64,000 bases of DNA from a virus (IMGVR_UViG_3300032144_000002:12575-76574), one strand, 5' to 3'. Positions 1 through 20,105 are shown, counted from the stretch's first letter. Notes: generated by a model from the sequence alone, not told the origin. Program-made: numbers and translations.

Positions 1-88
1 TAAAGCGAATGCACCCACTCATACGCGATCTGAAACGTCGTGGCGTGACGCTCATCAACGCTACGCGCTCAACCATGATCCCAGAGAA

Positions 89-865
89 ATGGGTGCCAAG
101 AGTCACCGTGGAGAATATCGCATGGTAGGGTTCCAGAGAGGGCAGGCTGCGCGTGCTGTCAGCACGATTATACGCAACAGACTTCGCGCTGATCGCGAGT
201 CGATGAAAATGAAGGCTTTCGAGAAGTATCGCCCAGACTGGGACTGGAAAGGAATGGCCGGTAGCGCAGCGTGCATCAAGTGGTGCTTCAGGGATTTGGA
301 AAACCTTGATGCGGCGCTGCAATTGTTCAGTGGTCGTAACGTAGCTGTGCAAGCTGGCGGTAACATCGGGATCTTTGCCAAGCGCCTAGCTGAGGAATTC
401 GAGGCTGTCCACACCTTTGAGCCTGATGATCTGCTATTTGAGCAGATGCGACTCAACGTACCTGAGAAGAATGTCGCGATGTATAAAGCTGCGCTTGGCG
501 ATCGTAGGGACGGTGTTCAGATGCGCTGCACGCGCCGTGATAATTCCGGGCGCGCGGTGCATGAGGGTCTGACACATGTCGCTGGCCCCGGCAATACGCC
601 GCAGATGTTGATTGATGATCTCGGTCTTAGGGCGTGCAATCTGATATATCTGGATATCGAAGGTTACGAGCTTCGTGCCCTGCACGGCGCTGCCGAAACT
701 ATCGCCGCGTATCGGCCGGTGATCGCAGTAGAGATCAATGGCGCCAGCGCGCACTATGGTTCCAGTAGGGATCAGATACGAGACTTCTTCGCGCGCCATA
801 ACTACGTGATGCGACTGGCACAGCATAGCGACGAGGTGTACGTTCCATGGGGGCTCGGAAAATGA
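89..865 (+). CDS. FkbM-family SAM-dependent methyltransferase; reading frame is open to window start so it may be 5'-partial
   Basis: Motif VAVQAGGNIGIFAKRLAEEF resembles the glycine-rich SAM loop of FkbM/Methyltransf_21 proteins; 258 aa from first ATG; no stop codon upstream in frame. Confidence 0.55.
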   Translation: MGAKSHRGEYRMVGFQRGQAARAVSTIIRNRLRADRESMKMKAFEKYRPDWDWKGMAGSAACIKWCFRDLENLDAALQLFSGRNVAVQAGGNIGIFAKRLAEEFEAVHTFEPDDLLFEQMRLNVPEKNVAMYKAALGDRRDGVQMRCTRRDNSGRAVHEGLTHVAGPGNTPQMLIDDLGLRACNLIYLDIEGYELRALHGAAETIAAYRPVIAVEINGASAHYGSSRDQIRDFFARHNYVMRLAQHSDEVYVPWGLGK

Positions 866-1617
866 CCAGAGACCTCTACACTGAAGCACGCTATCGCGAA
901 CTGTTTGATTTCGCGCGCATGTTTGAGTATCCGGTTGTGGACGAGATAGAGCGACGCATCGGCTATTCTGTGAGCCGTGAGTGGCTGGACGAGGCAGCGC
1001 GCGTACTGAACTGTCCGGTTAAGGTCAACCCGCCTAACTGGCAGCATGGGCGTGTGATCTACGCCTACTTGCGCATGGTACTAGCCAATCGTGCGCCAGA
1101 TGACGGCGCTAACCCGGAAGTATTCTTGGACATCGGCACCGCAAAAGGATTTTCCGCGTGCGTGATGGCAAAGGCCATCGCTGACAGTGGCTCGGAGTGG
1201 GCTGATGTACCAGTGCACACAGTTGACGTGATCGACCCGAACGCAAGAGTTCGCCGTAATACCGTGGTCGAACTGTCAGGGTTGAAAACGCTGTATGAGA
1301 CAATGGAATCTTTCATGCCAGAAGGCATCAAGATCATCGCATCCGGTGCTGGGTCTGCGGAACTTCTTACCGGCCTGCGCAACATGCGCGTCCAAATTCC
1401 GTTTGCGTTTGTGGACGGTAAGCATGCGCGCGCAGTCGTGAAGATGGAAGGCGAGGCTATCTACGACATGCAGCGTCCGGGTGACGTAGTTCTTTTCGAC
1501 GACTGCCAGATAAGCGAAGTCATGGCTGGTGTTCGTGATCTGCAGAGGCGACACTACGAGGTAGAGTTCATCGATATCGGGCCGCGCACTTACGGCCTCG
1601 GCACGAGACTATCATGA
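847..1617 (+). CDS. Class I SAM-dependent O-methyltransferase (TylF/MycF/CmcI-like sugar O-methyltransferase family)
   Basis: FLDIGTAKGFSACVMAKAI SAM-binding segment and FAFVDGKHARAVV metal/substrate motif typical of macrocin-O-methyltransferase-like enzymes; overlaps the upstream gene by 19 nt. Confidence 0.55.
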   Translation: MGARKMTRDLYTEARYRELFDFARMFEYPVVDEIERRIGYSVSREWLDEAARVLNCPVKVNPPNWQHGRVIYAYLRMVLANRAPDDGANPEVFLDIGTAKGFSACVMAKAIADSGSEWADVPVHTVDVIDPNARVRRNTVVELSGLKTLYETMESFMPEGIKIIASGAGSAELLTGLRNMRVQIPFAFVDGKHARAVVKMEGEAIYDMQRPGDVVLFDDCQISEVMAGVRDLQRRHYEVEFIDIGPRTYGLGTRLS

Positions 1618-2279
1618 AACCTATTGTGTCATGCGTGCTGGTAAGAGGTAATGTGCCCTACTCGCCGCTCTACGTCCACAGATTGCGTTCGATGGCGGCG
1701 CGGCACATTGCCGGCGACTTCGATTTCCTGTGCCTAACCGACCAGCCGGAAGCATTCGACAACCTGAATATTCTGACGCATAGAATACCGACGCCGCTGC
1801 CGAGCGTGTTTGGCTGGTGGTCAAAGCTGTACCTGTTCTCGCCGGAGGTTCAGCAGCTGCAGATGAAGCGTCGCTGCTTGTATCTCGATCTCGACGTGAT
1901 AGTGATGCGCTCACTGATGCCAATCATTGACAGTACGGACAAGTTCTTGCTGGCGCCAGACGACGCGCCGAACTTTCTTGGTAAGGGCAAGCGCGTTACG
2001 GTCAAGCGATACAACTCATCCGTGATGGCGTGGAACGGCGGCGAGCAGAATGACTTGTTCACAGAGTTCAGATTCGCAGTTACGCATCGTCTGTGGGGAG
2101 ACCAAGACTGGATCGGGGAGCGGCGCACGGATGCAACGGTCATGCCGAAGGCGTGGTTTCCACGCTTGTCACAGTGCGGTAACGAACGACCAAACGAAGC
2201 GGTCGTGCTGCTGTGCAAGAAGCCAAAGCCGCACCTTGCAGTATCGGTGTATCCGTGGGTCAGGGAGGCATGGGTCTGA
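1614..2279 (+). CDS. DXD-motif glycosyltransferase-like protein (GT-A, OCH1/GT32-like), paralog A
   Basis: WWSKLYLFS...CLYLDLDVIVMRSLMPII; clear paralog of ORF 3031-3783 (shared FxCLTDxP, LDLDxV, YPWV motifs); ATGA overlap with upstream gene. Confidence 0.4.
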   Translation: MKPIVSCVLVRGNVPYSPLYVHRLRSMAARHIAGDFDFLCLTDQPEAFDNLNILTHRIPTPLPSVFGWWSKLYLFSPEVQQLQMKRRCLYLDLDVIVMRSLMPIIDSTDKFLLAPDDAPNFLGKGKRVTVKRYNSSVMAWNGGEQNDLFTEFRFAVTHRLWGDQDWIGERRTDATVMPKAWFPRLSQCGNERPNEAVVLLCKKPKPHLAVSVYPWVREAWV

Positions 2280-3034
2280 TGGGCGCTCCAGGTTTCGATG
2301 ACGCACCGATGTTTGAGAGCAGCGAAGCGTGTCTGCCCAGACCCATGACTCTCATTTATCCGTATTACGAGAACCCGAAGTTCCTTCGGCGTCAGATTGA
2401 CGGCTGGTCTTCGCTACCGTCCTACTGCCAGAAGTTGATCAGGGTGATCGTTGTTGATGATGGCTCACCGAAGAATCCAGCGTTGTCGGTTCTTGCTGAG
2501 CTGTCTGGGCTGGAGTTCAACCTGTCGCTGTACCGTATAGAGGTGGACGTGCGTTGGAACTGGCTGGCCGCGCGAAACATCGGAGCGCATCACGCGCCTA
2601 GTGGCTGGTGCGTGTTCACTGACATGGACCATGTTCTGCCAGAACGAACCATCGACGTGCTCGCAAACCGAGTCTACGACCCGAACGCCATCTATAGGTT
2701 CAGCAGAGAAGAGCATACTGGCGCGGTCATTCATCCGCACCCGAATTCCATGTTCATGACCAAGGACATGTTCTGGAAAGTTGGCGGGTACGATGAGGCG
2801 TTGTCTGGGCACTATGGCACCGACGGTGACTGGCGTCGACGCTGCGCCGCTACCGCCAAAGTCTTTACGCTGCGCCAGCCGCTAATCCGTCATGAGTATC
2901 AAGGCGATAGCTCGACCGTCGACTATCTTCGCAAGCAGCCGCAAGATGCCGCCAAGAAGGCAATCATCAAGACTCGTAAGCCCGGCTGGCGTCCGAAGAC
3001 GCTCAGCTTCCCATATCATCAGGTGGCGCTATGA
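2213..3034 (+). CDS. Family 2 glycosyltransferase (GT-A); true start probably internal (ATG near 2306 or 2342)
   Basis: IRVIVVDDGSPKNP ... NIGAHHA ... FTDMDH (DXD) is the classic GT2 signature. Confidence 0.7.
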   Translation: MQEAKAAPCSIGVSVGQGGMGLMGAPGFDDAPMFESSEACLPRPMTLIYPYYENPKFLRRQIDGWSSLPSYCQKLIRVIVVDDGSPKNPALSVLAELSGLEFNLSLYRIEVDVRWNWLAARNIGAHHAPSGWCVFTDMDHVLPERTIDVLANRVYDPNAIYRFSREEHTGAVIHPHPNSMFMTKDMFWKVGGYDEALSGHYGTDGDWRRRCAATAKVFTLRQPLIRHEYQGDSSTVDYLRKQPQDAAKKAIIKTRKPGWRPKTLSFPYHQVAL

Positions 3035-3783
3035 GTGAAGTGATAGACATCCTGTGGTGGAAGTGGAACAAGCCGGGGTATCGCTCGTCTTACGACGGTA
3101 ATACGGTCAACACCGCTATGAACATGATAGATCGGCACCTGTCGCTGCCGCATCGCTTCACATGCGTGACAGATGACCCGAGCGGCATCAGTGAGCGCGT
3201 GCGTGTCGTTGATATTCGGTCTCTGCCGTCGTACGCATGGATGAACGTGCCGAACCCGAGCAACGCTCGAAACCCGAGCTGTTACGTGCGTCTGTTCTTG
3301 TTCAGCGCTGCCGCGAAAGAGCTCTTTGGAGACCGCGTACTAAGCGTTGATCTTGATCTCGTCGTTACTGGTGACATGTCGCCGATAGTGTCGCGGGCCG
3401 AGGACTTCGTTATGTGGGGCGGTCAGGCGCTTGGTCCGGGGAAACTCGGCGCGTACAATTGGGTCAACGGTAGCGTGCAGCTTCTAAGAACTGGGACTCG
3501 CCAGAAAGTGTTCGACACGTTCAACCCGAGAGTATCGCCGCTAAAGGCGCACATGTCCGGCTGTCGCGGATCGGATCAGGGATGGATTGCGCATTGTCTG
3601 GGTAAGGAAGCGATCACCACGTTCGGCATGGAAGAAGGGATCCACTCGTTCAGAAATCATATCGTGCCTAACAAGGGACGGTTGTTTGAGAACACGAAGA
3701 TCGTGGCGTTCCATGGCAAGCATGACCCTTGGCACAGAGAAGTGCAGGTCGCTTATCCTTGGGTCAAGGAGCACTACCGATGA
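3031..3783 (+). CDS. DXD-motif glycosyltransferase-like protein, paralog B
   Basis: FTCVTDDP...VRLFLFS...VLSVDLDLVVTGDMSPIV aligns along the full length with ORF 1614-2279. Confidence 0.4.
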   Translation: MSEVIDILWWKWNKPGYRSSYDGNTVNTAMNMIDRHLSLPHRFTCVTDDPSGISERVRVVDIRSLPSYAWMNVPNPSNARNPSCYVRLFLFSAAAKELFGDRVLSVDLDLVVTGDMSPIVSRAEDFVMWGGQALGPGKLGAYNWVNGSVQLLRTGTRQKVFDTFNPRVSPLKAHMSGCRGSDQGWIAHCLGKEAITTFGMEEGIHSFRNHIVPNKGRLFENTKIVAFHGKHDPWHREVQVAYPWVKEHYR

Positions 3784-3805
3784 GCAAACCAAAGCCGTCA
3801 AAGCC

Positions 3806-4249
3806 ATGCGCTCTGTGCAAGAAAGCAAGGGCTATGTTCAACAGGATGATGCGCCCACGCAAGGAGAAGAAGTCGTGACTCAGGCTGGTGAGTTTCGCGA
3901 GGTCATCGACATCCAACTGCCTGTCGAAACACAGGACACCGCTGGACAGATGGATACTGCCTATGAGAATCTCTACACTGGCGTTCGCGCTGGCATAGTG
4001 GCGCTCAGTGGCAGAGAGTATCAAGCCGCGATGCAGATCAATGCGGAAATCACCACGCGAATAAAGATTCGCTACCGCCGAGGGATCGTCTCCAACTGTC
4101 GGATTCTCCACACGATTGAAGATGACTCACCGCCGACTATCGAAGTGTACGACGTGCTGGCGGTGCTTCCTGATCCAGTCAGTGGGCGTCGGTACTTGAA
4201 CCTGATGTGCGCGCGCAGATTTTCAGATGGGTGGCGACATGGCGAATGA
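3806..4249 (+). CDS. Phage head-tail adaptor / head closure protein; start chosen at internal ATG because the listed ORF 3587-4249 runs spuriously upstream through the preceding gene
   Basis: QDTAGQMDTAYENLYTGVRAGIVALSGREYQAAMQINAEITTRIKIRYRRGI...YDVLAV matches the HK97/SPP1-type head-tail joining family; about 147 aa. Confidence 0.65.
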   Translation: MRSVQESKGYVQQDDAPTQGEEVVTQAGEFREVIDIQLPVETQDTAGQMDTAYENLYTGVRAGIVALSGREYQAAMQINAEITTRIKIRYRRGIVSNCRILHTIEDDSPPTIEVYDVLAVLPDPVSGRRYLNLMCARRFSDGWRHGE

Positions 4250-4721
4250 GCACGTTGAAGGCGCAGAAGTCCTTAAACAGGCGCTAAAAGAACTCGGTGA
4301 TATGAAGTCCTCGGACTGGAAAAGCACGCTGCGTGCTGCGGTCCGAGTGCCAATGATGCGCGTGCGAAAGCAAGCGATAGCCAATCTTTCTGCCATTTCT
4401 CCCGGCAAGACTCCGATCCATAGAACGTACCTCGGCCGCGAGGTGACTGCCGGGTTTGCGGTGCGTAGCGTTGCGTTGGTGGTAAAGCTGTTTCCTGCAA
4501 AGGGAGTTGTTAGCGCGATTCTAGGCGTCAAGAAAGAAGCGTTCTACGCGCTGTCTTTCTTCGAGCTTGGTACGTCAACTATTCCGCGACATCCGTGGCT
4601 GGCGCCGGCGCTCGAAGCTAGCACTGACAGTTCTATCAAAGAAGTTGGCGAAGCGATGCGTCGAAGGATTAACCAGATCGCCAAGAAACGTAATGCGCAG
4701 ACAAAGGGAGCCAAGCGATGA
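4239..4721 (+). CDS. HK97 gp10-family phage protein (head-tail connector component)
   Basis: FYALSFFELGTSTIPRHPWL is the hallmark of HK97 gp10 family; ATG 4239 has GGTGG Shine-Dalgarno and overlaps adaptor stop (the listed ATG at 4227 is an alternative). Confidence 0.65.
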   Translation: MANEHVEGAEVLKQALKELGDMKSSDWKSTLRAAVRVPMMRVRKQAIANLSAISPGKTPIHRTYLGREVTAGFAVRSVALVVKLFPAKGVVSAILGVKKEAFYALSFFELGTSTIPRHPWLAPALEASTDSSIKEVGEAMRRRINQIAKKRNAQTKGAKR

Positions 4722-5125
4722 TCGAAGCGGCGCTTGCCAGTTTCTTGCGTGAGGATGCCGCTGTGGCAGCGTTGCTGACAGTTGGCGAACACTCGCGAAT
4801 CTTTCCGCTCGTCATACCACAGAAGATCGCCGGTCGTCCGCAGGTCCCGTGTCTTGTGTACGCTGTCACCGGGGAGAACAGGAATAAGACGTTCTGTGGA
4901 ACGATTGGGCTGTCTGAGATTATCGTTGCCTTAGATAGCTATGCCAGCACTGTACTGGCCGCGCGCAATCTTAGCAACGTCGTGCGCGCTGCGTTGCTGG
5001 ATTATCGCGGCGCGATGGGATCGTTCAATGTCAAGGATGTGTCTTTGATCAGTAGCATAGTGTTGCCGGACATGGACCCCGGCTTGTTCAGAGTTTCGGA
5101 TACCGTTTCAATCTGGTGCGAATAG
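4718..5125 (+). CDS. Tail completion / tail terminator protein (DUF3168-like)
   Basis: Size (135 aa), position between gp10-like and major tail protein, ATGA overlap; sequence resembles DUF3168 tail component. Confidence 0.5.
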   Translation: MIEAALASFLREDAAVAALLTVGEHSRIFPLVIPQKIAGRPQVPCLVYAVTGENRNKTFCGTIGLSEIIVALDSYASTVLAARNLSNVVRAALLDYRGAMGSFNVKDVSLISSIVLPDMDPGLFRVSDTVSIWCE

Positions 5126-5135
5126 GAGTAAAGCG

Positions 5136-5588
5136 ATGAATACGTTGATTGGTAATGACTGGAAGGTTCAGATCGGAAACGAGGATTCCCCGCCAGTGTT
5201 CTCGGACCTGTGCGCGGCGTTCGACTTCGGCTCGATCGGTGAAGAGAAGCCGCTCGTAGACGTCACCACTTACTGTGATGATGCTCGCTCCTACCGCAAT
5301 GGTCTGGCGGATGGCGTCGAGATTCCTCTGCAGCTCAACTATGTGGAAGGCGACGTACTGGCCAAGCAGCTCTACGACGCGTACTCCAACGACGAGCTGG
5401 TGCTCATCAGAATTCTGAAGAAGGCTGGCGCAGATGATTCGCCGGAAGAAGAGCCAGTGTACTTCGAGTTCGCTGCTACCGTGCGCGCGTGGAACGTTAC
5501 CGGTCCGATCGGCGAGAAGAGCGTGCTCACCTTCACGCTGAAGGTATCTGGTCGCGTCAATTGGGTCACGGCAACCGAGGAAGAGTGA
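5136..5588 (+). CDS. Major tail (tube) protein
   Basis: 150-aa acidic protein immediately upstream of chaperone G/T and tape measure; canonical position in HK97/GTA-type modules. Confidence 0.55.
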   Translation: MNTLIGNDWKVQIGNEDSPPVFSDLCAAFDFGSIGEEKPLVDVTTYCDDARSYRNGLADGVEIPLQLNYVEGDVLAKQLYDAYSNDELVLIRILKKAGADDSPEEEPVYFEFAATVRAWNVTGPIGEKSVLTFTLKVSGRVNWVTATEEE

Positions 5589-5589
5589 G

Positions 5590-5913
5590 ATGATCGACAA
5601 GAGCAAACTTCTGGCTGACGCTGCAGCACTCCGCACCGATACGGTCGTCATCGAGGGACAGACGTTGACCGTGCGCGAGTTCGCTGCGGATGCGTTCGCG
5701 GAGTATGGCGCGGCTGCCGATGCTGGCAAGAAAGCGCAGTTCGCTATCGCCATCAAGGCGTGCGTGATCGATGAGGAAGGGAACGAAGTGTTTACCGCAG
5801 AAGAGGCTGCGGTCATGGCGCGCACTACGCGTACTTCCATGAAGATCATCAACAAGGTCATGGAACTCAGCGGCTTCAAGGAGGATACCGAAAAACATTC
5901 TGACGCCGGCTGA
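5590..5913 (+). CDS. Tail assembly chaperone (gpG-like)
   Basis: 107-aa acidic protein between major tail protein and tape measure; followed by overlapping T-frame ORF. Confidence 0.6.
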   Translation: MIDKSKLLADAAALRTDTVVIEGQTLTVREFAADAFAEYGAAADAGKKAQFAIAIKACVIDEEGNEVFTAEEAAVMARTTRTSMKIINKVMELSGFKEDTEKHSDAG

Positions 5914-6286
5914 GCTCTTCGACCTTCGGCTGGCGTCTTTACATGGGTATCTGGACATCGACGTTATGAAGGCGTCGATGTCTCAGAGAATGTATGTTCT
6001 GTGGCAGCGGTACTACGAGCAGGAGCCTTGGGGGCCATGGAGAGACAACGTGCACACGGCGTTGATTGCAGCGGAAGTGCGTCGAGTCTGGCAGCGACCG
6101 CGCTCGCATCCGAAGCTGTCGGATTTTATGGTGCGAAGTCCGCTAGAGCGCACTGCCGACGTTGAGAAAGCTCTGTTCACAGTTCTTCGTAACATGGCTA
6201 CTACTGTCTCGCCGAAAGAGTCGCAGCGGTTGTTGAGCGCGCACATGAAGAAGCGGCGCATGCGTAAGAGGAGAAATGGAAAGTGA
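5894..6286 (+). CDS. T-extension of tail assembly chaperone, +1 (or -2) frame relative to G; expected to be expressed only as G-T fusion by programmed frameshift near GAAAAAC (about 5890-5896)
   Basis: +1 frame is open from about 5882 through 6286 (MKASMSQRMYVLW... track ORF 5966-6286) and ends in ATGA overlap with tape measure start; A-rich slippery run 18 nt before G stop. Confidence 0.4.
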   Translation, partial: NILTPAELFDLRLASLHGYLDIDVMKASMSQRMYVLWQRYYEQEPWGPWRDNVHTALIAAEVRRVWQRPRSHPKLSDFMVRSPLERTADVEKALFTVLRNMATTVSPKESQRLLSAHMKKRRMRKRRNGK

Positions 6287-8307
6287 CAGATCTTGCAAAG
6301 CTGGTCGTAAGACTAGAAGCTCAGACTGCACAGTACATGCAGCAGCTCGATGCCGCGACTAAGAAGCTGGACAAGTTTACCAAGCAGACCAATGTGTCAG
6401 CGAAGAATATCGCGGCTGGGGTGGCTGCGGCAGCAGTGGGGGCTGCTACCGCATTCGCAGCGATGGGTAAAGCTGCGATTGACAATGCTGACAAGCTCTA
6501 TAAGATGTCGCAGTCTACTGGCGTCAGTGTTGAGGCACTGTCTCAGCTAGAGTATGTTGCTGATCTGTCTGGGTCGTCAGCTGACGACTTGAGTAAGTCA
6601 CTTGCCAAACTGTCACGTAACGCAGTTGAAGCTGCGAAGGGGGCTGCCGCTCCCGCTGAGGCATTCGATCAGTTGGGTATCGCGGTTGAAGGCGCTGATG
6701 GCAAGATCCGGAACACGGAAGATCTGCTGCTTGATGTAGCGGACAAGTTCTCAAAGATGGAAGATGGGGCTGCCAAGTCTGCGCTGGCGATGGAGATATT
6801 CGGTAAGTCTGGCGTGCAGTTGATCCCATTTCTTAATCAGGGAAGAGCCGGTATCGAAGCACTCAAGAAAGAGGCAGACGCGTTCGGGCTTACGATCGGT
6901 ACTGATGCGGCGCAAGCTGCCGAAGTATTCAACGATAATCTTTCCCGTGTACAAGCGGCCGGCAAGGGTCTGGCTAACCAGTTCATCCAAGAGAATATCC
7001 CGATGTTGACGTCGCTGTCACAGCGACTCGTAGAATCTGCCAAGTCTGGCGGAGCGCTGCATGCGTCGGTGATGTTGCTGAGCGGCGTCTTTAAGACACT
7101 GGTATCTGCTGGTGCCATCGTCGGGGCTGTGTTTCAGAACCTCGGCCGTGTGATTTACGGCGTAGGCGCGGCCATCGTGCGCGTTGCCCAAGGCGAGTTC
7201 AAGCTGGCGATGGGCGAGCTCAAAGACGCTTTTGGTGACGTAGGAAACAACGTTGAGGAGACTGCATCATTCATAGCCGATGTGTGGGCTGAGAATGTGC
7301 AGACAGTGTCTACTGCCGCCAAGGCTGTTGACCAGGATTTGAAGGAGACCATTTTCTTCAACGACAAGAAAGCGGAAGATGCCGCCAAGAAAGCTGCTGA
7401 GGCAGCGTCGCGATCACTGACCGATATGATTGCTGACCTGACGCAGCAGATCGAAACATTTGGTATGGCTGAGGGCGCAATTATTCGCTATCGGTTAGCG
7501 CACGGCGACCTTGCAGAAGCAGTACGTCTTTCCGGCGAGGCTGGCGCGTACTACGCTCAGAATATTATCGCGCTGACAGATGCCACGGTCAGACAGACTG
7601 AAGCTGAAGAGGCTAACAAGAAGGCTCAGGAAGACATCAATGCGCTGATGTCAGAAGGCGCTTCTTTGACTGAGTCTCTGCGAACGCCGACTGAAGAATA
7701 CGCTGACACCATACAGAGGTTGAACGAGTTGCTCGATGCGGGCGCGATTAGTGCCGATACCTACTACAGGGCGCAAGGCGAGGCAAAGGAAGCTTTTGAC
7801 GATGCCTCTAAGGTACATAACAAGTTCCTTGAAGAGGCTAACAAGAATGCTGTATCAATACTCGGCGATGGTCTGTACACTGCCGTCAATGATGGGATGA
7901 AGCGCGGGGTCAAAGGAGCTGCGCAAGCATTCGCAGACATGCTCACCAGACTGGCCGCTGAAGCTGCCGCCGCTAGCTTGATGAAGAAGCTCTTCGGTAG
8001 TGAAGGTATCGGTAGTGGCGGTGGTCTGCTCGGCGCCGGCATTGATTTCGTCGGCGGCTTGTTCAGAGACACCGGCGGGCGCGGACAAAAGGGTCGCCCA
8101 TACATGATTGGAACTGGTGCTCAGCCAGAAATGTTTGTACCAGATACCGCTGGCGAGTTTTATCCGGCCGACCAGTGGATGGGTATGGGCGGCCGCGCGC
8201 TGACCCAGAATATCTACGTACCGGAGCGTCTCTCCAGCAGAAGCGCGCGGCAGCTAGCGCTGGATTCTTCACGCGGCCAGCGTATCGCCGCCAGACTTGG
8301 AGGCTAG
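6283..8307 (+). CDS. Tail tape measure protein (674 aa)
   Basis: Ala/Gly/Gln-rich alpha-helical protein with N-terminal coiled coil, TM-like central segment, directly downstream of G/T chaperone. Confidence 0.85.
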   Translation: MTDLAKLVVRLEAQTAQYMQQLDAATKKLDKFTKQTNVSAKNIAAGVAAAAVGAATAFAAMGKAAIDNADKLYKMSQSTGVSVEALSQLEYVADLSGSSADDLSKSLAKLSRNAVEAAKGAAAPAEAFDQLGIAVEGADGKIRNTEDLLLDVADKFSKMEDGAAKSALAMEIFGKSGVQLIPFLNQGRAGIEALKKEADAFGLTIGTDAAQAAEVFNDNLSRVQAAGKGLANQFIQENIPMLTSLSQRLVESAKSGGALHASVMLLSGVFKTLVSAGAIVGAVFQNLGRVIYGVGAAIVRVAQGEFKLAMGELKDAFGDVGNNVEETASFIADVWAENVQTVSTAAKAVDQDLKETIFFNDKKAEDAAKKAAEAASRSLTDMIADLTQQIETFGMAEGAIIRYRLAHGDLAEAVRLSGEAGAYYAQNIIALTDATVRQTEAEEANKKAQEDINALMSEGASLTESLRTPTEEYADTIQRLNELLDAGAISADTYYRAQGEAKEAFDDASKVHNKFLEEANKNAVSILGDGLYTAVNDGMKRGVKGAAQAFADMLTRLAAEAAAASLMKKLFGSEGIGSGGGLLGAGIDFVGGLFRDTGGRGQKGRPYMIGTGAQPEMFVPDTAGEFYPADQWMGMGGRALTQNIYVPERLSSRSARQLALDSSRGQRIAARLGG

Positions 8308-8309
8308 CC

Positions 8310-8912
8310 ATGAGCTTCTTGAACGCGCGTCTTCTTGAGTGCGTTACTTTCGGTACAAGCGGTGGACCAACATGGTTCACTAGGAAGGTATCGCTTCGGT
8401 CAGGGGTCACGCGCCGCAACGCCAATCGTGCGATGCCGTTGTATAGATATTCTGTCCTGTACAGGAACCTTCTTCCGGAATTCCATCAGGCTGTAATAGA
8501 CGCGTATAATGCTTGCCTCGGCGGTGTGCATTCTTTCAGATTCAAGGACTGGGCTGATTTCGAAGCCGATGAAGAAGTGCTACCAGACATCGGAACTGGC
8601 AGCGCGCAGGAAGTTCAGCTCTACAAAGCCTACACTTTTGGTGGCGAAACTTTGTATCGTAGAATACGGAAGCCGGTGCCCGGTACGGTCACGATGTATG
8701 CCGACGGAGTTGAAATACCGGCGACGGTGGATTACGATACTGGCGTCGTTACGCTCACAGCGACTATCGGCGACGTTCTGTCGTGGAGCGGTGAGTTCGA
8801 TGTTCCAGTCATGTTTGAGGACGACGAGCTGCAGTTCTCTGGCGATGACAAGGGAGTTGGCGGCCTGTTCCTGACAAGCAACGTTGCGCTTTGCGAGGAT
8901 ATCGCAGTATGA
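8310..8912 (+). CDS. Distal tail protein, DUF2460 (GTA ORFg12-like)
   Basis: MSFLNARLLECVTFGTSGGPTWFTRKV matches the conserved N-terminus of TIGR02217/DUF2460 phage proteins; start ATG 8310 two nt after tape measure stop (track ORF 8175 starts spuriously upstream). Confidence 0.7.
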   Translation: MSFLNARLLECVTFGTSGGPTWFTRKVSLRSGVTRRNANRAMPLYRYSVLYRNLLPEFHQAVIDAYNACLGGVHSFRFKDWADFEADEEVLPDIGTGSAQEVQLYKAYTFGGETLYRRIRKPVPGTVTMYADGVEIPATVDYDTGVVTLTATIGDVLSWSGEFDVPVMFEDDELQFSGDDKGVGGLFLTSNVALCEDIAV

Positions 8913-9808
8913 GCCGTTCAGTATCTAGCGAGCTGCAAGCGCATCTTGACAGCGGTATGACGACAACCTGCAGACTGCTGAAGGTTAAATCTGGTGGCGA
9001 TACGCCGGTAATCTTCGGGCTGACCTCACTCGATATCGATGTCGCCTATGACGACGGATCTGGCGACGGCGAGGTCGTGTACTCTGCAACTCGAGGATTC
9101 GATCCCACCGCCATGCGCTCTACTGTTGGGTACGGTATCGACAATGCCGAAGCTAAAGCTCTGTTGTCCGCGGATGTTGAAGGCGTCACCGCCGCTATGG
9201 TAGATGCGGGTGTCTTCGATGACGGCACATGGGTCTGCTATATGGTCAACTACAAAGACTTGACAATGGGGCACATTGAGCTTGGCGGCGGCGATATCGG
9301 TGACATACATACGCGCTACGGTATGGTTTGGATTCCCGAGTTACTAGACACGATGGTTCGATTGAAGCAGCCTGTCGGTGTAGTCACTTCTCGTAAATGT
9401 CGCGCGATCTTCGGTAATCCGGCTACCCAAGAATACCGACAGACTGGCTGCGGCGTCGACGTGTCGGCGATGTGGACCGCCGGAGTAGTTCAGTCCGTGG
9501 ATGGCGCTGAGTCGAACAGAATATTCACTGGCGACGCTCTGGCGACTCCTCATTCGTACCCGGGCCGAGTTCGGTTTACTACCGGTGACAACGTTGGGCG
9601 CGTCTTCGCTGTCGAGGTAGTCACGGGGTTTGAGATAGAGCTCGTTGAGACTACGCCGTATCCAATCCAGGCTGGCGATGAGTATGAGATAAGACCAGAC
9701 TGCGGTAAGCGTTATGAAGAGGACTGCATCGAAGTGTGGAATAATGGCCCGAACTTCAAGGGAGAGCCGTTGATGCCTGACGGAAGCGAAGTGGCGGCAC
9801 CACAATGA
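8891..9808 (+). CDS. DUF2163 / BR0599-family phage tail protein (GTA ORFg13-like); true start may be ATG 8909
   Basis: LQAHLDSGMTTTCRLLKVKSGGDTPVIFGLTSLDIDV resembles TIGR02218 conserved N-terminus; conserved gene order. Confidence 0.7.
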   Translation: MRGYRSMSRSVSSELQAHLDSGMTTTCRLLKVKSGGDTPVIFGLTSLDIDVAYDDGSGDGEVVYSATRGFDPTAMRSTVGYGIDNAEAKALLSADVEGVTAAMVDAGVFDDGTWVCYMVNYKDLTMGHIELGGGDIGDIHTRYGMVWIPELLDTMVRLKQPVGVVTSRKCRAIFGNPATQEYRQTGCGVDVSAMWTAGVVQSVDGAESNRIFTGDALATPHSYPGRVRFTTGDNVGRVFAVEVVTGFEIELVETTPYPIQAGDEYEIRPDCGKRYEEDCIEVWNNGPNFKGEPLMPDGSEVAAPQ

Positions 9809-10227
9809 TCGCAGAAGACTTCGCAATGGCGGCCAAGACTTTTGTTGGCGCAAGATGGCGACACCGTGGACGTCAGCCCGGCGCAATGGATTGTCTCGGG
9901 CTGCTGTATCTGTCATCGGTCGCCGCTGGTGCGCCGTTTGAAGATGTGCGTGGCTACGGCCGGGAACCTTGGGACAATCAATTAACCACGGAGCTTGAAC
10001 GGCGATTTGGACTGCCGCTGTCTCTCAAGGACGTCAGAGTCGGGGATATCGCTCTGATCCGATGGGGGCTTGCTGAGCCGTCACATGTCGGCATTGTCAG
10101 TCGCCATCCAGACGGCGGTCTCACGTTGGTTCATGTACACACACTACTCGGATGCGTAGAGCAATCTTTAGTCGAGCCGATCTCAAGAGCGGTAGTCGCG
10201 GTGTACCGCCCGTGGGGTGACGAATGA
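9805..10227 (+). CDS. NlpC/P60-family cell-wall peptidase (GTA ORFg14-like tail-associated lysin)
   Basis: Catalytic Cys in GAMDCLGLLY and downstream His (SHVGIV, HVHT); ATGA overlap; canonical position. Confidence 0.7.
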   Translation: MIAEDFAMAAKTFVGARWRHRGRQPGAMDCLGLLYLSSVAAGAPFEDVRGYGREPWDNQLTTELERRFGLPLSLKDVRVGDIALIRWGLAEPSHVGIVSRHPDGGLTLVHVHTLLGCVEQSLVEPISRAVVAVYRPWGDE

Positions 10228-12461
10228 GCACCAGAGTCGTAATAGGTGGTCTTGGCGCTGCCGTAGGATTTGTCGTAGGCGGTGGTCCACAAGGAGCCAT
10301 GTGGGGATGGCAGATTGGTTCGATGATCGGCAATGTCGTGGATCCACAGATTATCAAAGGACCTTCTGTCGGCGACGTCAGCCAGCAGACTAGCCAGGAA
10401 GGAATCCCGATTCCCATCACATACGGTCTGTCGCCGCCAATCGCAGGGAACATTTCCGCGGCCGCGCCGCCAAATATCGTGCGCTCGCGTGAGAGCGGTA
10501 AGGGCGGGCCGAAGTACGAAACCGAAACTATTTACCGGACCTACGCCATCAATTTCTGTGAAGGACCAATCGGTGGGTTCAGACGAGTCTGGCGAAACAA
10601 TGTCAAGGTATACGACATTGATGACCCTGTTTTCAACTTGGGTATAGACTTTTCTGACGTCATTGATGGCGCGGTCATTGAATCTAGAAATACGAAGTTT
10701 CTGCAGAAGGCGCGCTTCTTCCTCGGCACGTATTCTCAAGCTGCGTCAACTGATCTTGAGGCAGTGTTCGGGGTCGGGGCTACGCCGGCGCATCGCGGCA
10801 TCGCTTACATGGTCATCGTCGACGAGGATACGACGGCTGAGGGCGGGATCATCCCGTACTGGCAGGCGCAGGTAGACGCCACGGCGCCAGCAGTGCTTAC
10901 GAATCCAACGCCGCTCGGTGTGCAAGATGACATCACGCCGGTAGAAATCGGCGCGGTGACTTCGCAGGTATCTGGAACTTTCTACGTTGTTGTTGGTCTT
11001 GGCTCTGATCTCGTTGGAGTCACAGCCGCGCAGATCAAAGCTGGACAGAAAGCTAATGGCGCGGCAGCCATCGCCGCCGAAGATTCTTCGGTGGGCGACA
11101 GCACGCCGAGCGTTTCAATCTCTGGATTGTCAGCCGGGCTGTTGTACAAGTTCGCTGCCGTGCAGGAGAACGCCAACGGGTTCAGCAATCTTGTATACGG
11201 CAATTTCAAGGAATTGAACCTGCCGACATTGACATCTCCAGTGCCGTCTGGGGAACTTGAAGACATGACCGAGGCTACGGTCGGTGCTACTACCGATCAG
11301 GTTGCTGGTGGTATCTATATTGTCTTAGGAACCGGCTCGACGCTTACGGGGATCACTGCCGCGCAGATCCTTGACGGGCGACAGGCAAACGGAGCGCCAG
11401 CGCAGCATGCGGCAAACGATTTCGTAAGTAGCTCGACGCCAACTATCCATTTCGAGGGGTTGAACGTTGGTACGCTGTATCATTACGCGATAGTTCAGCA
11501 GACTACTGTAGGACTTAGTAACGTGGTGACCGGTGAATTTACGACGTGGGACGGTCTCGCGCCTCCTGGTGAGGTTGAATATACGGAGGACGGTACGTGG
11601 AATAAACCAGCGAACCTCGACTACATCATCGTTACGTTGATCGGTGCTGGTGGCGGCGGTGGCTCCGGCAACGTTACTAACAATATCAGTAACGGTAGTA
11701 TGACGCCGCGTAATGGCGGTGGAAGCGGCGCGTACAGAAGAGTCCAGATTTACGAAGCTTACCTGCCTTCCTCTATGCCGGTAATCGTCGGTGTTGGTGG
11801 TGCTGGAGCATCGGCCAATACTGCGTCCCCACCCGGCGGAGGTACACCGACCGTCGCTGGCTCGGATGGAACGAGAGGAACAGCGTCCATTTTTGGTGAC
11901 GTCGCCAGTGGCGCGGCTAACAAGTATTTTGCGGCGGGTGGGTATGACCCTAGCATCGGCATCAATACGCAAGGCGGCGCAGCGACGTCGTGGACGTTTG
12001 GGCAGTACGTAAACTTAGAGGTATATCAGGGCTCTCCGTCGTCAGGCAACCCCGGTCTCAAGGCGGCAGGTGGCGGGGGCGGGGGTGGCAACGTTTCCGT
12101 TAGCAGCGGTACGCCGATCCCTGTTGCGGGTGGAACTGGGGTTAACTGCGACAACCATGCTGTCAATGGTGGAACTGGAGGAACTGGAGGAACGTGGATG
12201 GGCGGTGACGGGTCAGTAGGCGGGTCGTCGTCTGACCCCGTAGCCGGTGGCGGCGGTGGCGGCGGTGGTGGCGCTGGCATCGTAGGATCAGGATCGGTCG
12301 CAGGCAACGGTGCCGACGGCGGAACTCCTGGTGGCGGCGGCGGTACAGGAGGCAATTGCCTGCTTAGTTCTAGCGGCGTCGGTAGTGGGTCAGGAACTGG
12401 CGGCGCCGGCGGTCGCGGTGGCGATGGTCGCGTTATCATCGAGCATTTTTACCTACCCTAG
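10224..12461 (+). CDS. Tail/baseplate hub-like protein: GTA-type N-terminal domain, two tandem ~100-aa FN3-like repeats, long C-terminal glycine-rich domain
   Basis: N-terminus IPIPITYG...IYRTYAINFCEGPI like GTA g15/lambda J N-region; repeats TPVEIGAVTSQVSGTFYVVVGLGS...LLYKFAAVQ and TEATVGATTDQVAGGIYIVLGTGS...LYHYAIVQ; residues about 470-740 are >40% Gly. Confidence 0.6.
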   Translation: MSTRVVIGGLGAAVGFVVGGGPQGAMWGWQIGSMIGNVVDPQIIKGPSVGDVSQQTSQEGIPIPITYGLSPPIAGNISAAAPPNIVRSRESGKGGPKYETETIYRTYAINFCEGPIGGFRRVWRNNVKVYDIDDPVFNLGIDFSDVIDGAVIESRNTKFLQKARFFLGTYSQAASTDLEAVFGVGATPAHRGIAYMVIVDEDTTAEGGIIPYWQAQVDATAPAVLTNPTPLGVQDDITPVEIGAVTSQVSGTFYVVVGLGSDLVGVTAAQIKAGQKANGAAAIAAEDSSVGDSTPSVSISGLSAGLLYKFAAVQENANGFSNLVYGNFKELNLPTLTSPVPSGELEDMTEATVGATTDQVAGGIYIVLGTGSTLTGITAAQILDGRQANGAPAQHAANDFVSSSTPTIHFEGLNVGTLYHYAIVQQTTVGLSNVVTGEFTTWDGLAPPGEVEYTEDGTWNKPANLDYIIVTLIGAGGGGGSGNVTNNISNGSMTPRNGGGSGAYRRVQIYEAYLPSSMPVIVGVGGAGASANTASPPGGGTPTVAGSDGTRGTASIFGDVASGAANKYFAAGGYDPSIGINTQGGAATSWTFGQYVNLEVYQGSPSSGNPGLKAAGGGGGGGNVSVSSGTPIPVAGGTGVNCDNHAVNGGTGGTGGTWMGGDGSVGGSSSDPVAGGGGGGGGGAGIVGSGSVAGNGADGGTPGGGGGTGGNCLLSSSGVGSGSGTGGAGGRGGDGRVIIEHFYLP

Positions 12462-12472
12462 GACACGGACAC

Positions 12473-14098
12473 ATGCCGACACTTCAGGAAATCTGCAGCG
12501 ATATCTGTACCCGCGCTGGTGTCACTTCAGATCTGGTCGACGTTACTGGCTTGCCGGATGTAGACGTAGACGGATTCGTAATGACCAATCAGTATCCGGC
12601 GTCACAGGCGTTGCAGGCGCTCGGGCAGATTTTTCTATTTGACGTCGCTAAGTACGACGGCAAGATTCGTTTCATACCACGCGGTGGTAACTCAGTCGCT
12701 ACTATCGCAGAATCGCAGCTCGTTGAAGATGAAGCGGAGATAGAAAGCCAGAAGCGCGGCGACTCTGTAGCCGTGCCGCGCACACTGCACTTGGCATACT
12801 ACGATACAGATAGTGACGCTCTGTCACCGCATAAACAAAGTAGCGATTTGACAGAGCACCGCAGATCTGTTGGTGAGATGGTCATCGACTCTGCTGTGGT
12901 GATGGACAAGGATCGCGCCGCTCGTACCGTGGTCATTGCGCACAAAGTAGCGCTAGAGGATAGAAAAGGGGAACTGAATTTTAGTCTGCCGGACAATTAC
13001 ATCTGGCTGACGCCTGCTGATATCGTTATCCTGCAGCACGATGGTAAGAGTGAGCGGATTCGGTTGCAGCAGGAAGATGTCATGGATGGATACCAGCAGT
13101 ACATAGCGCTACGCGACAGACAGAGCGCGGTGACTTCTGTTGTCGAAGGTATTCCGCCACCGATCATCGCACCGCCCCCATCCGAAGTCGTTGGTCCTAC
13201 ACTGGTACTGCCGATTGATATTCCGCTGCTTTCGGATACTGATGACGTGACTGGCTTGATGACCTACGCTGGCGTCACTGGGTTCACGGATGACTGGGCC
13301 GGAGCACTGGTTGAAATGTCACGTGACGGTGGATCGAATTACACTGAAAGCCGAAATGCGCCAGTAGCGGCTACTATCGGTGAGCTGACTAGCGTGCTGC
13401 CGAATCATCCTGCTGAGTATCCGGATGATACGCATGAATTCAGTGTCGAGCTCTACATGCCCGACGCAGAGCTGATTGAATCAACGTTCGAAGGGATGCT
13501 GAACGGTGAGAATCTCATAGCGATTGGCTCGCCGACGCTGGGCTGGGAACTATTGAACTTCTCTTCGGCCCAACAGAATGATACCAGCCCGCAGGTGTGG
13601 AACATATCCGGGCTATTGCGCGGGCGTAAGCATAGCGGTACTAGAGAGCACGCGGTTGGCGAATACTTTGTTGTTCTTGATCGTTCTAAGCTAGGTATCG
13701 TTCCGCTCGGTGTCGCGGATATCAGACGAGACCTGATGTTCAGAGCGACCAGCGCTGGCGAGGCGCTACCGACGTCGCCGGTGTCGATGGAATTCGTTGG
13801 TAAGACCCAAACCGAATATCCGGTAGGCTACCTGACTGCTGAGCGTGATGGGGCTGACATTCTTGTAGATTGGCAGGGAGCGCCGCGTCTCGGTTCTTGG
13901 ATGTCGGTGGCCAACGGAGTTAGCTTTGTAGGGTACAGAGTCACGGCTACGGACGGCGTCGATACGGTCACAGTTGATACACTGACGCCAGGAGCCACAG
14001 TCGATGCGTCTGGTCTCAGCGGCGAGGTTACGATTTCAGTTTCTGCGCGTAACAGTTTGACCGGGCTTGGCCCGGCTTCGGAGGTGATTGTTCCATGA
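12473..14098 (+). CDS. Host specificity / central tail fiber protein (Phage-tail_3, lambda J-like middle region)
   Basis: 541 aa directly after hub-like protein; conserved segments DVTGLPDVDVDGFVMTNQ, YIWLTPADIVILQHDG typical of GTA g15/J-like proteins. Confidence 0.55.
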   Translation: MPTLQEICSDICTRAGVTSDLVDVTGLPDVDVDGFVMTNQYPASQALQALGQIFLFDVAKYDGKIRFIPRGGNSVATIAESQLVEDEAEIESQKRGDSVAVPRTLHLAYYDTDSDALSPHKQSSDLTEHRRSVGEMVIDSAVVMDKDRAARTVVIAHKVALEDRKGELNFSLPDNYIWLTPADIVILQHDGKSERIRLQQEDVMDGYQQYIALRDRQSAVTSVVEGIPPPIIAPPPSEVVGPTLVLPIDIPLLSDTDDVTGLMTYAGVTGFTDDWAGALVEMSRDGGSNYTESRNAPVAATIGELTSVLPNHPAEYPDDTHEFSVELYMPDAELIESTFEGMLNGENLIAIGSPTLGWELLNFSSAQQNDTSPQVWNISGLLRGRKHSGTREHAVGEYFVVLDRSKLGIVPLGVADIRRDLMFRATSAGEALPTSPVSMEFVGKTQTEYPVGYLTAERDGADILVDWQGAPRLGSWMSVANGVSFVGYRVTATDGVDTVTVDTLTPGATVDASGLSGEVTISVSARNSLTGLGPASEVIVP

Positions 14099-14448
14099 GC
14101 ACGTACACAGAAATTCCATACATACCGGAGAACACGGATGATCCGGTCGCGGCGCTTAATCTAGCGCTTCGTGTAATCCGAGCGCTCACGCAAACATGCG
14201 TCATAAGCATGGCGTTGACTGCACCTCCTGGTAGCGTTAACGACGGCGACAAGTACATTGTGGGTAGCGGAGCTACCGGGGACTGGGCAGGCATGGACGG
14301 CTATCTCGCGGAATACGTCGCACTGAGCGATACGTGGGATTTCTTCGCGCCCGGTACGCTCGCTAATTTCGTCGTCAATCTTGCGGATGGTAAGGCGTAT
14401 TACCATGATGCTGATGGCTCGCCTTCGGAGTGGATAGAACTGACTTGA
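14095..14448 (+). CDS. Small conserved tail-associated protein (unknown function)
   Basis: 117 aa, ATGA overlap with host specificity gene; YIVGSGATGDWAGMDGY motif. Confidence 0.35.
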   Translation: MSTYTEIPYIPENTDDPVAALNLALRVIRALTQTCVISMALTAPPGSVNDGDKYIVGSGATGDWAGMDGYLAEYVALSDTWDFFAPGTLANFVVNLADGKAYYHDADGSPSEWIELT

Positions 14449-14463
14449 TTTGCGGAGAAGTCC

Positions 14464-14889
14464 ATGCCTGATAAGCTCGGTCTCTTGTCTGAAGGGTTTA
14501 AACTCAACACAGAGGAGCGCGGATTGATTATCCGCGTACTATGGGTGGTCATTGTGACTGTCAACATTTTCTGGTTCCATGGATGGCTGGCTTTCGCGGG
14601 GCTGGCGTCGCCATTCGCGACGGCCACTGACGTGAAGAAGGTCGAGGAAGCTGTAGTCGCCAGCACACAGCCGCTAGCTGCGGGATTCAAGGCGAACATA
14701 GAAGCCGCGATCATCGCTCTCGAAGAAGACATTGATGTCATGAGCGCACGGCAAGCAGCCGCGCCTTCTCAATGGACTGAACTCGACCAGCGAATACTCA
14801 GCAGAAAGAGACAGCAGTTGGCGAGCCAGAGAAGCGCGCTCGCTGCGATCGTAGAGTCTCAGGTAGAGTCGAAGAAGACTGCAAGATGA
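14464..14889 (+). CDS. Membrane protein (one or two N-terminal TM helices plus coiled-coil tail)
   Basis: IIRVLWVVIVTVNIFWFHGWLAFAGLAS hydrophobic segment; RBS GGAGAAG upstream. Confidence 0.35.
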   Translation: MPDKLGLLSEGFKLNTEERGLIIRVLWVVIVTVNIFWFHGWLAFAGLASPFATATDVKKVEEAVVASTQPLAAGFKANIEAAIIALEEDIDVMSARQAAAPSQWTELDQRILSRKRQQLASQRSALAAIVESQVESKKTAR

Positions 14890-15488
14890 CCGTCAAGTGC
14901 TTCTTGGTTAAGCCGGTAGGTCGCGTGCGTCTTTACGCGCGGCGCTACCGGCTCTCGTCAAAAGACGCGTGTCCCGGCAAGATGTCCTACCACGACGAAA
15001 GGGTCCTCATAGACACGGTGCCTGCATCCGTTGTCGACGGTGTACTGAAGTACGATGAGCCAGTACTCGCCGAGGATGATCAACGTTGGCCAGCCGCTTG
15101 CAACTGTGGCCGCGCGTTTACCGCCGATGACGAGCGCCAGATCTTTGCCGAAGAAATCTACGCCGACGAGAAGGGACGCGAGTACGTCCTGTCTGACAAC
15201 ATTCCAGGCATGATGTACGACGCTACGTGGATGCACGACCACAAAGCGTTCTGTGGACCGGATGGCAGATCTATCCATGTCGTTTGTCCAGATGGCCACG
15301 CATGGTGCATTGATTCGCGGTGTCGCAATTGTACGCTGCCGAATGACAACGAGCACAAGTGCTGGGTTCGGCACGGAGAGCCGCCGGTGATTACAGTCAA
15401 CAAGAAGGGCAAGACCTGTTCTGCTGGCGGCGGATCGATTGACACAGGAACCTACCACGGGTTTCTACAGGATGGAAAGTTCACATGA
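14886..15488 (+). CDS. Cysteine-rich hypothetical protein (putative metal-binding)
   Basis: About 14 Cys and several His in 200 aa (CNCGRAF, CGPDGRSIHVVCPDGHAWCIDSRCRNC); overlaps neighbours by 4 nt. Confidence 0.35.
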   Translation: MTVKCFLVKPVGRVRLYARRYRLSSKDACPGKMSYHDERVLIDTVPASVVDGVLKYDEPVLAEDDQRWPAACNCGRAFTADDERQIFAEEIYADEKGREYVLSDNIPGMMYDATWMHDHKAFCGPDGRSIHVVCPDGHAWCIDSRCRNCTLPNDNEHKCWVRHGEPPVITVNKKGKTCSAGGGSIDTGTYHGFLQDGKFT

Positions 15489-16674: not shown

Positions 16675-16913
16675 TGAACAGCAACAGACTTGTAGCGGCA
16701 GCGCAGATCGCGCTGTCAATTGTCTACACGTGGGGATACTTTGATGTTCTGAAGATATTCCTCGAAGGGCGCGTGAAGACCCCGAGTGAATGGAAAGATG
16801 TTGTGACTGCGTTGATAACGCTGCTGACTGCCGGAGTCTTGATGATTCTGCAGTTCTGGTTCCTTCGCAGTCGCCAGCAGGAGGCGCCGCCGGCGCCGAA
16901 AGAATTGGGTTGA
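16671..16913 (+). CDS. Holin (class II, two TM helices)
   Basis: 80 aa with two hydrophobic helices and charged C-terminus; ATGA-coupled to endolysin. Confidence 0.55.
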   Translation: MMNSNRLVAAAQIALSIVYTWGYFDVLKIFLEGRVKTPSEWKDVVTALITLLTAGVLMILQFWFLRSRQQEAPPAPKELG

Positions 16914-16945
16914 GTAGTAAAGTGTGGAAGTAAAGGAGAGATGAC

Positions 16946-18258: not shown

Positions 18259-18273
18259 GCGGGCAAAATCAAA

Positions 18274-18300
18274 GGCCCTCAGCCATGCGGGCTGAGGGCC
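18274..18300. terminator. Bidirectional intrinsic terminator between convergent arms
   Basis: Perfect 11-bp GC stem GGCCCTCAGCC-atgcg-GGCTGAGGGCC; on the minus strand it is followed by TTTGATTTTGCC (U-run), on the plus strand by TTGAT. Confidence 0.6.
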
Positions 18301-20091: not shown

Positions 20092-20105
20092 CAGTCTCTG
20101 GCGGT

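Follow-up and report, generated by a model that had tools for sequence, protein, structure and literature searches.

Positions 89-3783 of a 64,000-nt stretch of viral DNA (IMGVR_UViG_3300032144_000002:12575-76574, called the window in the following) are filled on the plus strand by five consecutive open reading frames (ORFs) for two methyltransferases and three glycosyltransferases. Together with a Maf-like gene directly upstream, these genes behave as an accessory cassette in the neck part of the late structural operon. Reasoning from this context and from precedent in other phages, we give about an even chance to the reading that the cassette carries out late, cytoplasmic (O-)glycosylation of virion proteins. 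No publication describing this cassette was found in the literature, and a DNA-level search of window positions 1-8000 against 50,697 phage records returned no match.

Enzymes encoded by the cassette

The loci used for comparison are designated by L numbers. One of them, L003, is a Logan contig that is identical to the window and reaches 1220 nt further upstream, and the gene starts in Table 1 were adjusted from gene calls on it. The five genes, in order, encode an FkbM methyltransferase, a Methyltransf_24 enzyme, a first glycosyltransferase (GTa), a glycosyltransferase of family GT2 and a second glycosyltransferase related to the first (GTb). They are real conserved genes and not chance ORFs, since orthologues of each, 42-66% identical, occur in several contigs of uncultured phages, and since homologous clusters in a large protein collection number 685 for GTb and 689 for the second methyltransferase.

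The first ORF in its longest form (89-865) scored above the cut-offs of both PF05050 (37.8 bits, 2.7e-9, cut-off 22.7) and TIGR01444 (59.9 bits, 3.6e-16, cut-off 37.7). It also matches phrog_8156 (3e-25), and its orthologues in L004-L011, L048 and L052 are 38-59% identical. For the second ORF, Methyltransf_24 (42.4 bits, cut-off 26.3) was the sole domain reported and the TylF profile PF05711 was not matched. The nearest structure to a model of this protein is the sugar O-methyltransferase SpnH, and some of its homologues bear the CmcI domain PF04989. The GT2 enzyme, searched as the longest ORF (2213-3034), exceeds the cut-offs of PF00535 (42.8 bits, 7.1e-11, cut-off 23.3) and PF10111 (44.2 bits, 2.2e-11, cut-off 27.3).

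Neither GTa nor GTb matched any Pfam or NCBIfam model, including Glyco_transf_8. Both match phrog_1962 'glycosyltransferase' (3.8e-9 for GTa and 1.6e-7 for GTb), and they are old paralogues that align to each other with 26% identity over 236 aa (BLASTP, E 2e-11); GTa orthologues in the relatives are 42-55% identical. Residues D107 and D109 of GTb are invariant in 39 homologues, and GTa has the sequence LDLD at the position aligned with this D-x-D. A fold comparison gave GTb a GT-A fold closest to GT8 structures. The top match was LgtC, and the other GT8 neighbours included glycogenin, Skp1 alpha-galactosyltransferase, GlyE and the PBCV-1 capsid glycosyltransferase. PF03407 is present in a few GTb homologues, and profile matches to glycogenin in the PDB did not go beyond E 0.07. 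The methyltransferases, the GT2 enzyme and the Maf-like protein, compared with the PDB as single sequences or as profiles, gave nothing but weak hits (including FkbM against 2py6) or spurious ones (DARPin, ferritin), which were left unused.

These results agree with a preliminary description of the window, which had proposed a block of two methyltransferases and three glycosyltransferases at these positions, among them an FkbM enzyme, a GT2 enzyme and a paralogous pair of DXD glycosyltransferases. The pair is upheld by the shared PHROG match, the mutual identity and the DXD-type motif in both proteins. The description had further called the second methyltransferase a TylF/MycF-like sugar O-methyltransferase; assignment as an O-methyltransferase stands, with SpnH as nearest to the model, while the TylF part finds no counterpart in the profile searches.

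The sixth gene, at the upstream edge of the block, encodes a 208-aa protein matching phrog_4603 'alpha-2,3-sialyltransferase' (3.7e-37). Its match to the Pfam family MptE-like (PF01973, former DUF115/Maf) is below threshold (19.7 bits vs a cut-off of 34.6); 10 of 12 members of the Maf-like family matched the same model below threshold and no other model (best E 9.8e-7). Homologues lie in or beside head or morphogenetic genes in D3 (orf7) and PAJU2, both Pseudomonas phages, and in P1 (PmgO/PmgP) and P7 (HdmB), and the gene on its own is far more widespread than the five-gene cassette. Two uncultured-phage proteins of 685-700 aa in BFVD, named 'MptE-like', contain a GTb-like domain. They suggest a fusion of the two functions, and thus that the Maf-like and GT8-like functions cooperate. 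Maf-like/GTb fusions were also sought among the collected loci and none was seen there, leaving the two named BFVD entries as the sole hint. The phrog_4603 family is labelled 'alpha-2,3-sialyltransferase' in many RefSeq phage records.

The small ORF that follows GTb overlaps each of its neighbours by 4 nt and has no PHROG match.

Two further ORFs of the late operon were seen downstream on the plus strand. A 202-aa ORF (15485-16093), between the distal tail genes and an N-acetylmuramidase gene (16090-16674), has class I methyltransferase-like motifs and matches Pfam Methyltransf_12/23 at just E ~0.005; it could be a third late methyltransferase. Before it, between the tail genes and this ORF, lies a 200-aa cysteine-rich ORF (14886-15488) with no family match.

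Table 1. Features of the cassette, its downstream neighbours and the minus-strand cluster (window coordinates)
Feature	Position	Strand	Remark
Sixth cassette-associated gene (Maf-like), 3' end only in window	1..128	+	full gene 208 aa, L003 722-1348
FkbM methyltransferase	122..865	+	L003 gene call start 122; longest ORF from 89
Class I O-methyltransferase, Methyltransf_24, YrrM/CmcI-like; sugar O-methyltransferase-like by fold	847..1617	+	
GTa, GT-A type glycosyltransferase-like, LDLD motif, GTb paralogue	1614..2279	+	
GT2 glycosyltransferase, soluble, 251 aa	2279..3034	+	L003 gene call start; longest ORF from 2213
GTb, GT8-like retaining-type GT-A glycosyltransferase, invariant D107-x-D109	3031..3783	+	
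32-codon lysine-rich ORF between GTb and Hc1	3780..3878	+	called on L003; reality uncertain
Hc1 head completion/closure protein (Phage_HCP)	3875..4249	+	PF05521 1.8e-17, phrog_25 1.6e-20; outside cassette
Thymidylate-synthase-like gene	20106-21194	-	
MobA-like NTP-transferase	21194-21946	-	
APH-like kinase	22377-23273	-	
TET-associated glycosyltransferase	23826-24668	-	
5-hmdU DNA kinase	26239-27330	-	PF18723, 4.8e-53
Two large genes without assigned function	24665-25807, 27542-28939	-	

Position in the operon and exchange between relatives

On L003 the genes upstream of the block encode, in order, a collagen-like protein, the Ad1 head-tail adaptor (Phage_connect_1, phrog_40) and the Maf-like protein. 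This gene order and the gene calls place the cassette between Ad1 and the head closure gene Hc1. The genes 3' of Hc1 are those for Neck1, the tail terminator, the major tail protein, the tape measure protein, distal tail proteins like those of gene transfer agents and a lysis cassette, and they extend to ~18.3 kb. The preliminary description was thus right to place the block among late structural genes, in fact in the head-neck part of the operon. It had put the block immediately upstream of the head-tail adaptor; the neck position stands, but the downstream gene is the Hc1 closure gene and the adaptor Ad1 is found upstream instead.

All junctions from the Maf-like gene to the tail terminator are overlaps, of 1-19 nt, and the cassette genes are translationally coupled to the neck genes. 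Over positions 1-19000, promoter-like and terminator-like sites deviate from the expectation for shuffled sequence by no more than ~1 standard deviation. A single terminator-like hairpin with a long stem was seen, and it lies on the opposite strand at ~18.3 kb, where the two arms converge. The GC content is 0.559 both in the block and in the structural arm; the replication arm has 0.576.

The order Maf-like, FkbM, Methyltransf_24, GTa, GT2, GTb recurs in the uncultured phages L004, L005, L006, L008, L048 and L052, and most of the same families are found in a different order in L009 and L011. Identity of the cassette proteins to those of the window (42-66%) is in the range of the neighbouring structural proteins, which indicates long co-residence and not a recent acquisition. 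The position of Hc1 differs between these phages: it follows the cassette in the window, L004 and L048, lies between GT2 and GTb in L005 and L008, and precedes the cassette in L006 and L052. The five genes are missing from L042 and L043, where the Maf-like gene is followed directly by Hc1. Their structural proteins are as close to those of the window as the structural proteins of cassette bearers; for L042 the identities are 69% for the major tail protein, 59% for Hc1 and 58% for the Maf-like protein.

Because equally close relatives lack the cassette or have another one, and because the position of Hc1 varies, we regard the block as an accessory cassette of the neck operon, and the cargo-like behaviour proposed in the preliminary description is borne out by this comparison. 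Judged by gene order, the head-neck operon has a conserved Maf-like gene and after it a variable, optional cassette slot.

The alternative occupant of the same slot after the Maf-like gene is a conserved set of 4-5 genes, seen in L058 (4915-9922), L067 (5515-9656), L071 (10569-13989) and L078 (1103-4664). It comprises a Methyltransf_11 enzyme and a protein with a weak match to DUF6716 'putative glycosyltransferase', and the rest is without a family match. A profile search of the PDB with the proteins of this alternative cassette gave nothing significant.

Matches in isolate collections were restricted to Tetraselmis viridis virus S20 and SI1, EBPR siphovirus 3 and one unannotated marine virus. 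EBPR siphovirus 3, a partial metagenomic record, has GTb only, and the unannotated marine virus has GT2 only. Prophage-like versions occur in Bradyrhizobium (for example sp. SZCCT0428, L015), in Luteimonas (for example L. saliphila SJ-9, L025), in a metagenome-assembled genome (MAG) of Dongiaceae and in other proteobacterial genomes.

Information on capsid and portal comes from the relatives and not from this exact phage. Their head genes have an unusual order, namely protease-capsid, portal, collagen-like protein and adaptor, and in L009 (775-2745), L011 (2355-4301) and L025 (3371-5988) the genes for prohead protease and major capsid protein, either fused into one or side by side, precede the portal gene. 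The collagen-like gene, of which L003 2-409 (5' of the window) is a part, has full-length homologues in L004 (4771-6192), L005 (3155-4534) and L008 (2262-3659). It lies between the portal and Ad1 genes and is also found in relatives without the cassette. In the protein, an N-terminal coiled coil precedes a run of G-K/R-D-G type triplets that can reach ~200 residues; a globular domain in the C-terminal part bears a CBM5/12-like aromatic motif, and a short stretch of collagen ends the chain. We regard the protein as a possible head fibre and as one of the candidates for the glycan acceptor.

Proposed virion glycosylation and its alternatives

If the cassette glycosylates the particle, its enzymes would be made late, in the cytoplasm alongside the virion proteins. 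The GT2 enzyme and the two GT8-like glycosyltransferases, probably with the Maf/MptE-like protein, would draw on host nucleotide sugars to attach a short oligosaccharide to at least one virion protein. Candidates for the acceptor are the capsid protein, the collagen-like protein of the head and the tail tube protein. The two O-methyltransferases would then cap sugars of the chain by methylation, and the outcome would be a variable glycan coat altering the particle surface and with it recognition, adsorption or stability. The acceptor, the order of the enzymes and the biological benefit in this scheme are what we infer; the analysis itself establishes which genes and folds are present, that they are embedded in the operon, that the proteins are soluble, that the cassette is accessory and exchangeable, and that it is independent of the DNA-modification genes. 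We favour virion glycosylation because the enzymes are soluble and made together with the virion proteins, because machinery for a lipid carrier or for export is lacking, because families of protein glycosylation are represented and because a precedent exists in other phages. Maf proteins and the GT-D fold, for example, are known from flagellin and adhesin O-glycosylation, and among the GT8 enzymes glycogenin, GlyE and the Skp1 galactosyltransferase build protein-linked glycans.

Several points weigh against it. No cultured phage of known host carrying the cassette was found, close relatives do without it, and no genes for nucleotide-sugar synthesis were seen beside the block. LgtC, the top fold match of GTb, is a lipooligosaccharide enzyme, and the GT2 and FkbM families are also frequent in polysaccharide synthesis. 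No acceptor motif was found, and the tail tube C-terminus and Ser/Thr-rich content were not consistently different between relatives with and without the cassette. Sequence homology to the enzymes of the mycobacteriophage Corndog, the nearest precedent, was not detectable.

The similarity to LgtC bears on an alternative that we consider unlikely, in which the cassette modifies the host envelope, be it the lipopolysaccharide (LPS) core, O-antigen, exopolysaccharide or a glycolipid, for seroconversion, for superinfection exclusion or for preventing progeny from sticking to debris. LgtC-type GT8, GT2 and FkbM enzymes are characteristic members of pathways for LPS and polysaccharides, and the versions of the cassette in prophage-like regions of Bradyrhizobium, Luteimonas and several MAGs would suit such a role. 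The chromosomal clusters that contain distant bacterial homologues of GTb (24-30% identity) also encode a sulfotransferase and adenylation/carrier proteins, which is reminiscent of glycoconjugate or lipid synthesis; taken by itself, this chromosomal context is uninformative on function.

The gene content and setting of the block argue the other way. Membrane segments are absent from all cassette proteins: the maximum 19-residue Kyte-Doolittle hydropathy of the six proteins is 0.84-1.30, and the scan revealed no hydrophobic stretch compatible with a membrane helix. Profile searches found no flippase, polymerase, lipid-carrier enzyme or acetyltransferase in or beside the block; a Gtr-type flippase, a bactoprenol transferase, an O-acetyltransferase, Wzy and Wzx are all absent. 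Coupled to the neck genes in the late operon, the cassette genes do not lie beside an integrase or repressor, and no integrase match was obtained among the window ORFs scanned, which included all those of at least 300 aa. Genes for a DNA polymerase, a primase, a ligase and DNA hypermodification are present in the window. They suggest a lytic lifestyle, in which late expression would leave little time for remodelling the cell surface. Seroconversion-like O-antigen modification, one of the two functions that the preliminary description had suggested, therefore fits poorly.

We also assign a low probability to a target outside the virion, such as a host protein (flagellin, pilin or receptor), a small molecule or a nucleotide sugar, with the neck operon serving as a mere late-expression slot for a moron. 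Maf-type and GT-D enzymes are established as acting on flagellins and adhesins, the search for an acceptor came up empty, and the cassette is optional and exchanged in the manner of a moron. Set against this, the cassette, the Maf-like gene and the neck neighbourhood have been kept together at 42-66% identity in at least three arrangements, which exceeds what would be expected of a free-standing moron, and the block has no flanking promoter or terminator of its own.

A last alternative concerns the phage DNA. The preliminary description had called the block a second glycan locus, which together with a minus-strand cluster would give about 12 glycan-related genes. That cluster (window 18514-28939) consists of genes for thymidine DNA hypermodification via 5-hydroxymethyl-deoxyuridine (5-hmdU), and is adjoined by genes for an SNF2 helicase, DNA polymerase A and a ligase. 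Its combination of kinase, nucleotidyltransferase and glycosyltransferase suggests a sugar-containing thymidine modification. Within 6 kb on each side of the kinase gene in 72 viral hmdU-kinase loci, the thymidylate-synthase-like gene was present in 65 and the TET-associated glycosyltransferase in 28, and cassette proteins were found in none. The complete 39 kb genome of S20 and the contigs L009-L011 have genes of the block families (FkbM, GT2 and GTb types only in L010) and no detectable hmdU kinase. Hypermodification and the cassette thus occur independently, which invalidates the count of about 12 genes along with the idea that the block adds to a first glycan locus. It also corrects a tempting mis-annotation, as the other 'glycan' cluster is one of DNA thymidine hypermodification. 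The identity of L143 and L011 as one 41,981-bp phage was considered and rejected, there being no blastn match.

The same distribution speaks against the cassette enzymes elaborating the sugar on the 5-hydroxymethyl-deoxyuridine of the phage DNA, which we hold to be very improbable, and so do the distance of 15-25 kb between block and cluster, the opposite strand and the setting in the structural operon. What invites the idea is that a 5-hmdU DNA kinase, a TET-associated glycosyltransferase, an NTP-transferase and a further kinase are all encoded by a phage that also has the cassette, and that the closest cassette-bearing relative (the L004/L084 contig) has an hmdU kinase as well. Virus-encoded glycosyltransferases that hypermodify DNA are known, according to the citation of Pyle et al. 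(2024) in PMC12619734.

Elsewhere on the minus strand of the window (38661-40998), a gene for a NAMPT-like nicotinamide phosphoribosyltransferase stands beside a gene with a sub-threshold phosphoribosyltransferase domain; the pair points to NAD salvage, possibly with a role in counter-defence. Two separate SPFH/Band-7 genes are located at 33039-33917 and 56344-56922 (minus strand).

Returning to virion glycosylation, we tentatively extend it to a broader proposition, which we rate a little below an even chance: tailed phages infecting Gram-negative bacteria (Proteobacteria) would glycosylate their own virions by means of a hypervariable, cassette-swapping 'glycan island' fixed at the junction of the Maf-like gene and the neck genes in the head operon. 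The five genes of the window would then represent one allele of this island. Its product would be a methyl-capped oligosaccharide, possibly carried by the capsid or by the collagen-like head fibre. Virion glycosylation would thereby reach beyond mycobacteriophages into a large group of environmental phages, and a serotype-like diversification of particles would be implied. If the cassette does act like those of the mycobacteriophages, particle glycosylation would be a widespread and independently evolved trait; metagenomes yielded nearly 700 protein clusters for each of two of the enzymes. The trait would then be found in phages of environmental proteobacteria, with close relatives polymorphic for presence, absence and exchange of the cassette. 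This would bear on how particles interact with hosts, grazers, mucus and defence systems, on the evolution of phage 'serotypes', and on the annotation of 'glycosyltransferase morons' in structural modules.

Comparison with known glycosylation systems

To our knowledge, phage-encoded virion glycosylation has so far been demonstrated only in mycobacteriophages, where it reportedly weakens the neutralising-antibody response. According to Freeman et al. (2023), cited by way of PMC11600133 and PMC12619734, the targets of the mycobacteriophage enzymes are the subunits of the capsid and the tail tube. The cluster O mycobacteriophage Corndog encodes a tandem O-methyltransferase and several GT-A glycosyltransferases (gp35-gp38) in the head-morphogenesis part of its structural operon (PMC4351075), and in this tandem arrangement within a structural operon the window cassette is alike. 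Corndog gp35 shares Methyltransf_24 with the second methyltransferase (847-1617) and also matches TylF, and gp37 is GT2-like. Direct BLASTP and profile comparisons with gp35-38 gave E 0.025 or worse, and the two systems are best seen as analogous and not homologous. They also differ in their insertion site, which is between portal and protease in Corndog and between Ad1 and Hc1 in the window, and in gene content, as the window cassette has FkbM, two GT8-like paralogues and a Maf-like gene and has no GT25. Corndog infects actinobacteria, whereas the prophage-like versions of the window cassette are in Bradyrhizobium, Luteimonas and other proteobacterial genomes. Modification of the Corndog/Che8 type has been reported on virion proteins; for the window cassette it is a prediction.

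The closest relative of the cassette in culture collections is found in S20/SI1 (NC_020840), which are misnamed and really tailed phages. Compared with the window, S20 shows 44% identity for GTb, 43% for GT2 and 28% for FkbM, and Maf-like genes are also present. Its cluster of ~9 genes lies between the major capsid gene and Hc1 and includes a GT-D fold protein, two Maf-like proteins and a Methyltransf_23 enzyme. Unlike the window, S20 has no Methyltransf_24 enzyme and no GTa orthologue, and its capsid gene arrangement is different. A published description of this cluster was not found in the literature.

Bacterial protein O-glycosylation (Maf of flagellin; the GT8 enzyme GlyE and GT-D of serine-rich repeat (SRR) adhesins) shares enzyme families with the cassette, GT-D being found in S20 only. 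In both systems the enzymes are soluble and cytoplasmic and would act stepwise on folded or nascent proteins. The cassette differs from these bacterial systems in that its Maf match is below threshold and that neither nonulosonic-acid synthesis genes nor a flagellin or adhesin gene is nearby. Capsid glycosylation in the chlorovirus PBCV-1 (A64R family) differs from the cassette in that it belongs to a eukaryotic virus, involves N-linked glycans and multidomain enzymes, and has no sequence relationship to it. Prophage seroconversion modules (GtrABC, Oac, D3-type) are similar in being phage-encoded, accessory and variable sets of glycan-modifying genes. They consist of membrane proteins whose genes adjoin the integrase or attachment site and are expressed in the lysogen, whereas the window cassette encodes soluble proteins in a late neck operon.

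A phage glycosylation cassette in a structural operon is therefore of a known kind. New here are enzymes without homology to the known set, another insertion site and the occurrence in a different, apparently large group of environmental phages, with a polymorphism of presence, absence and exchange.

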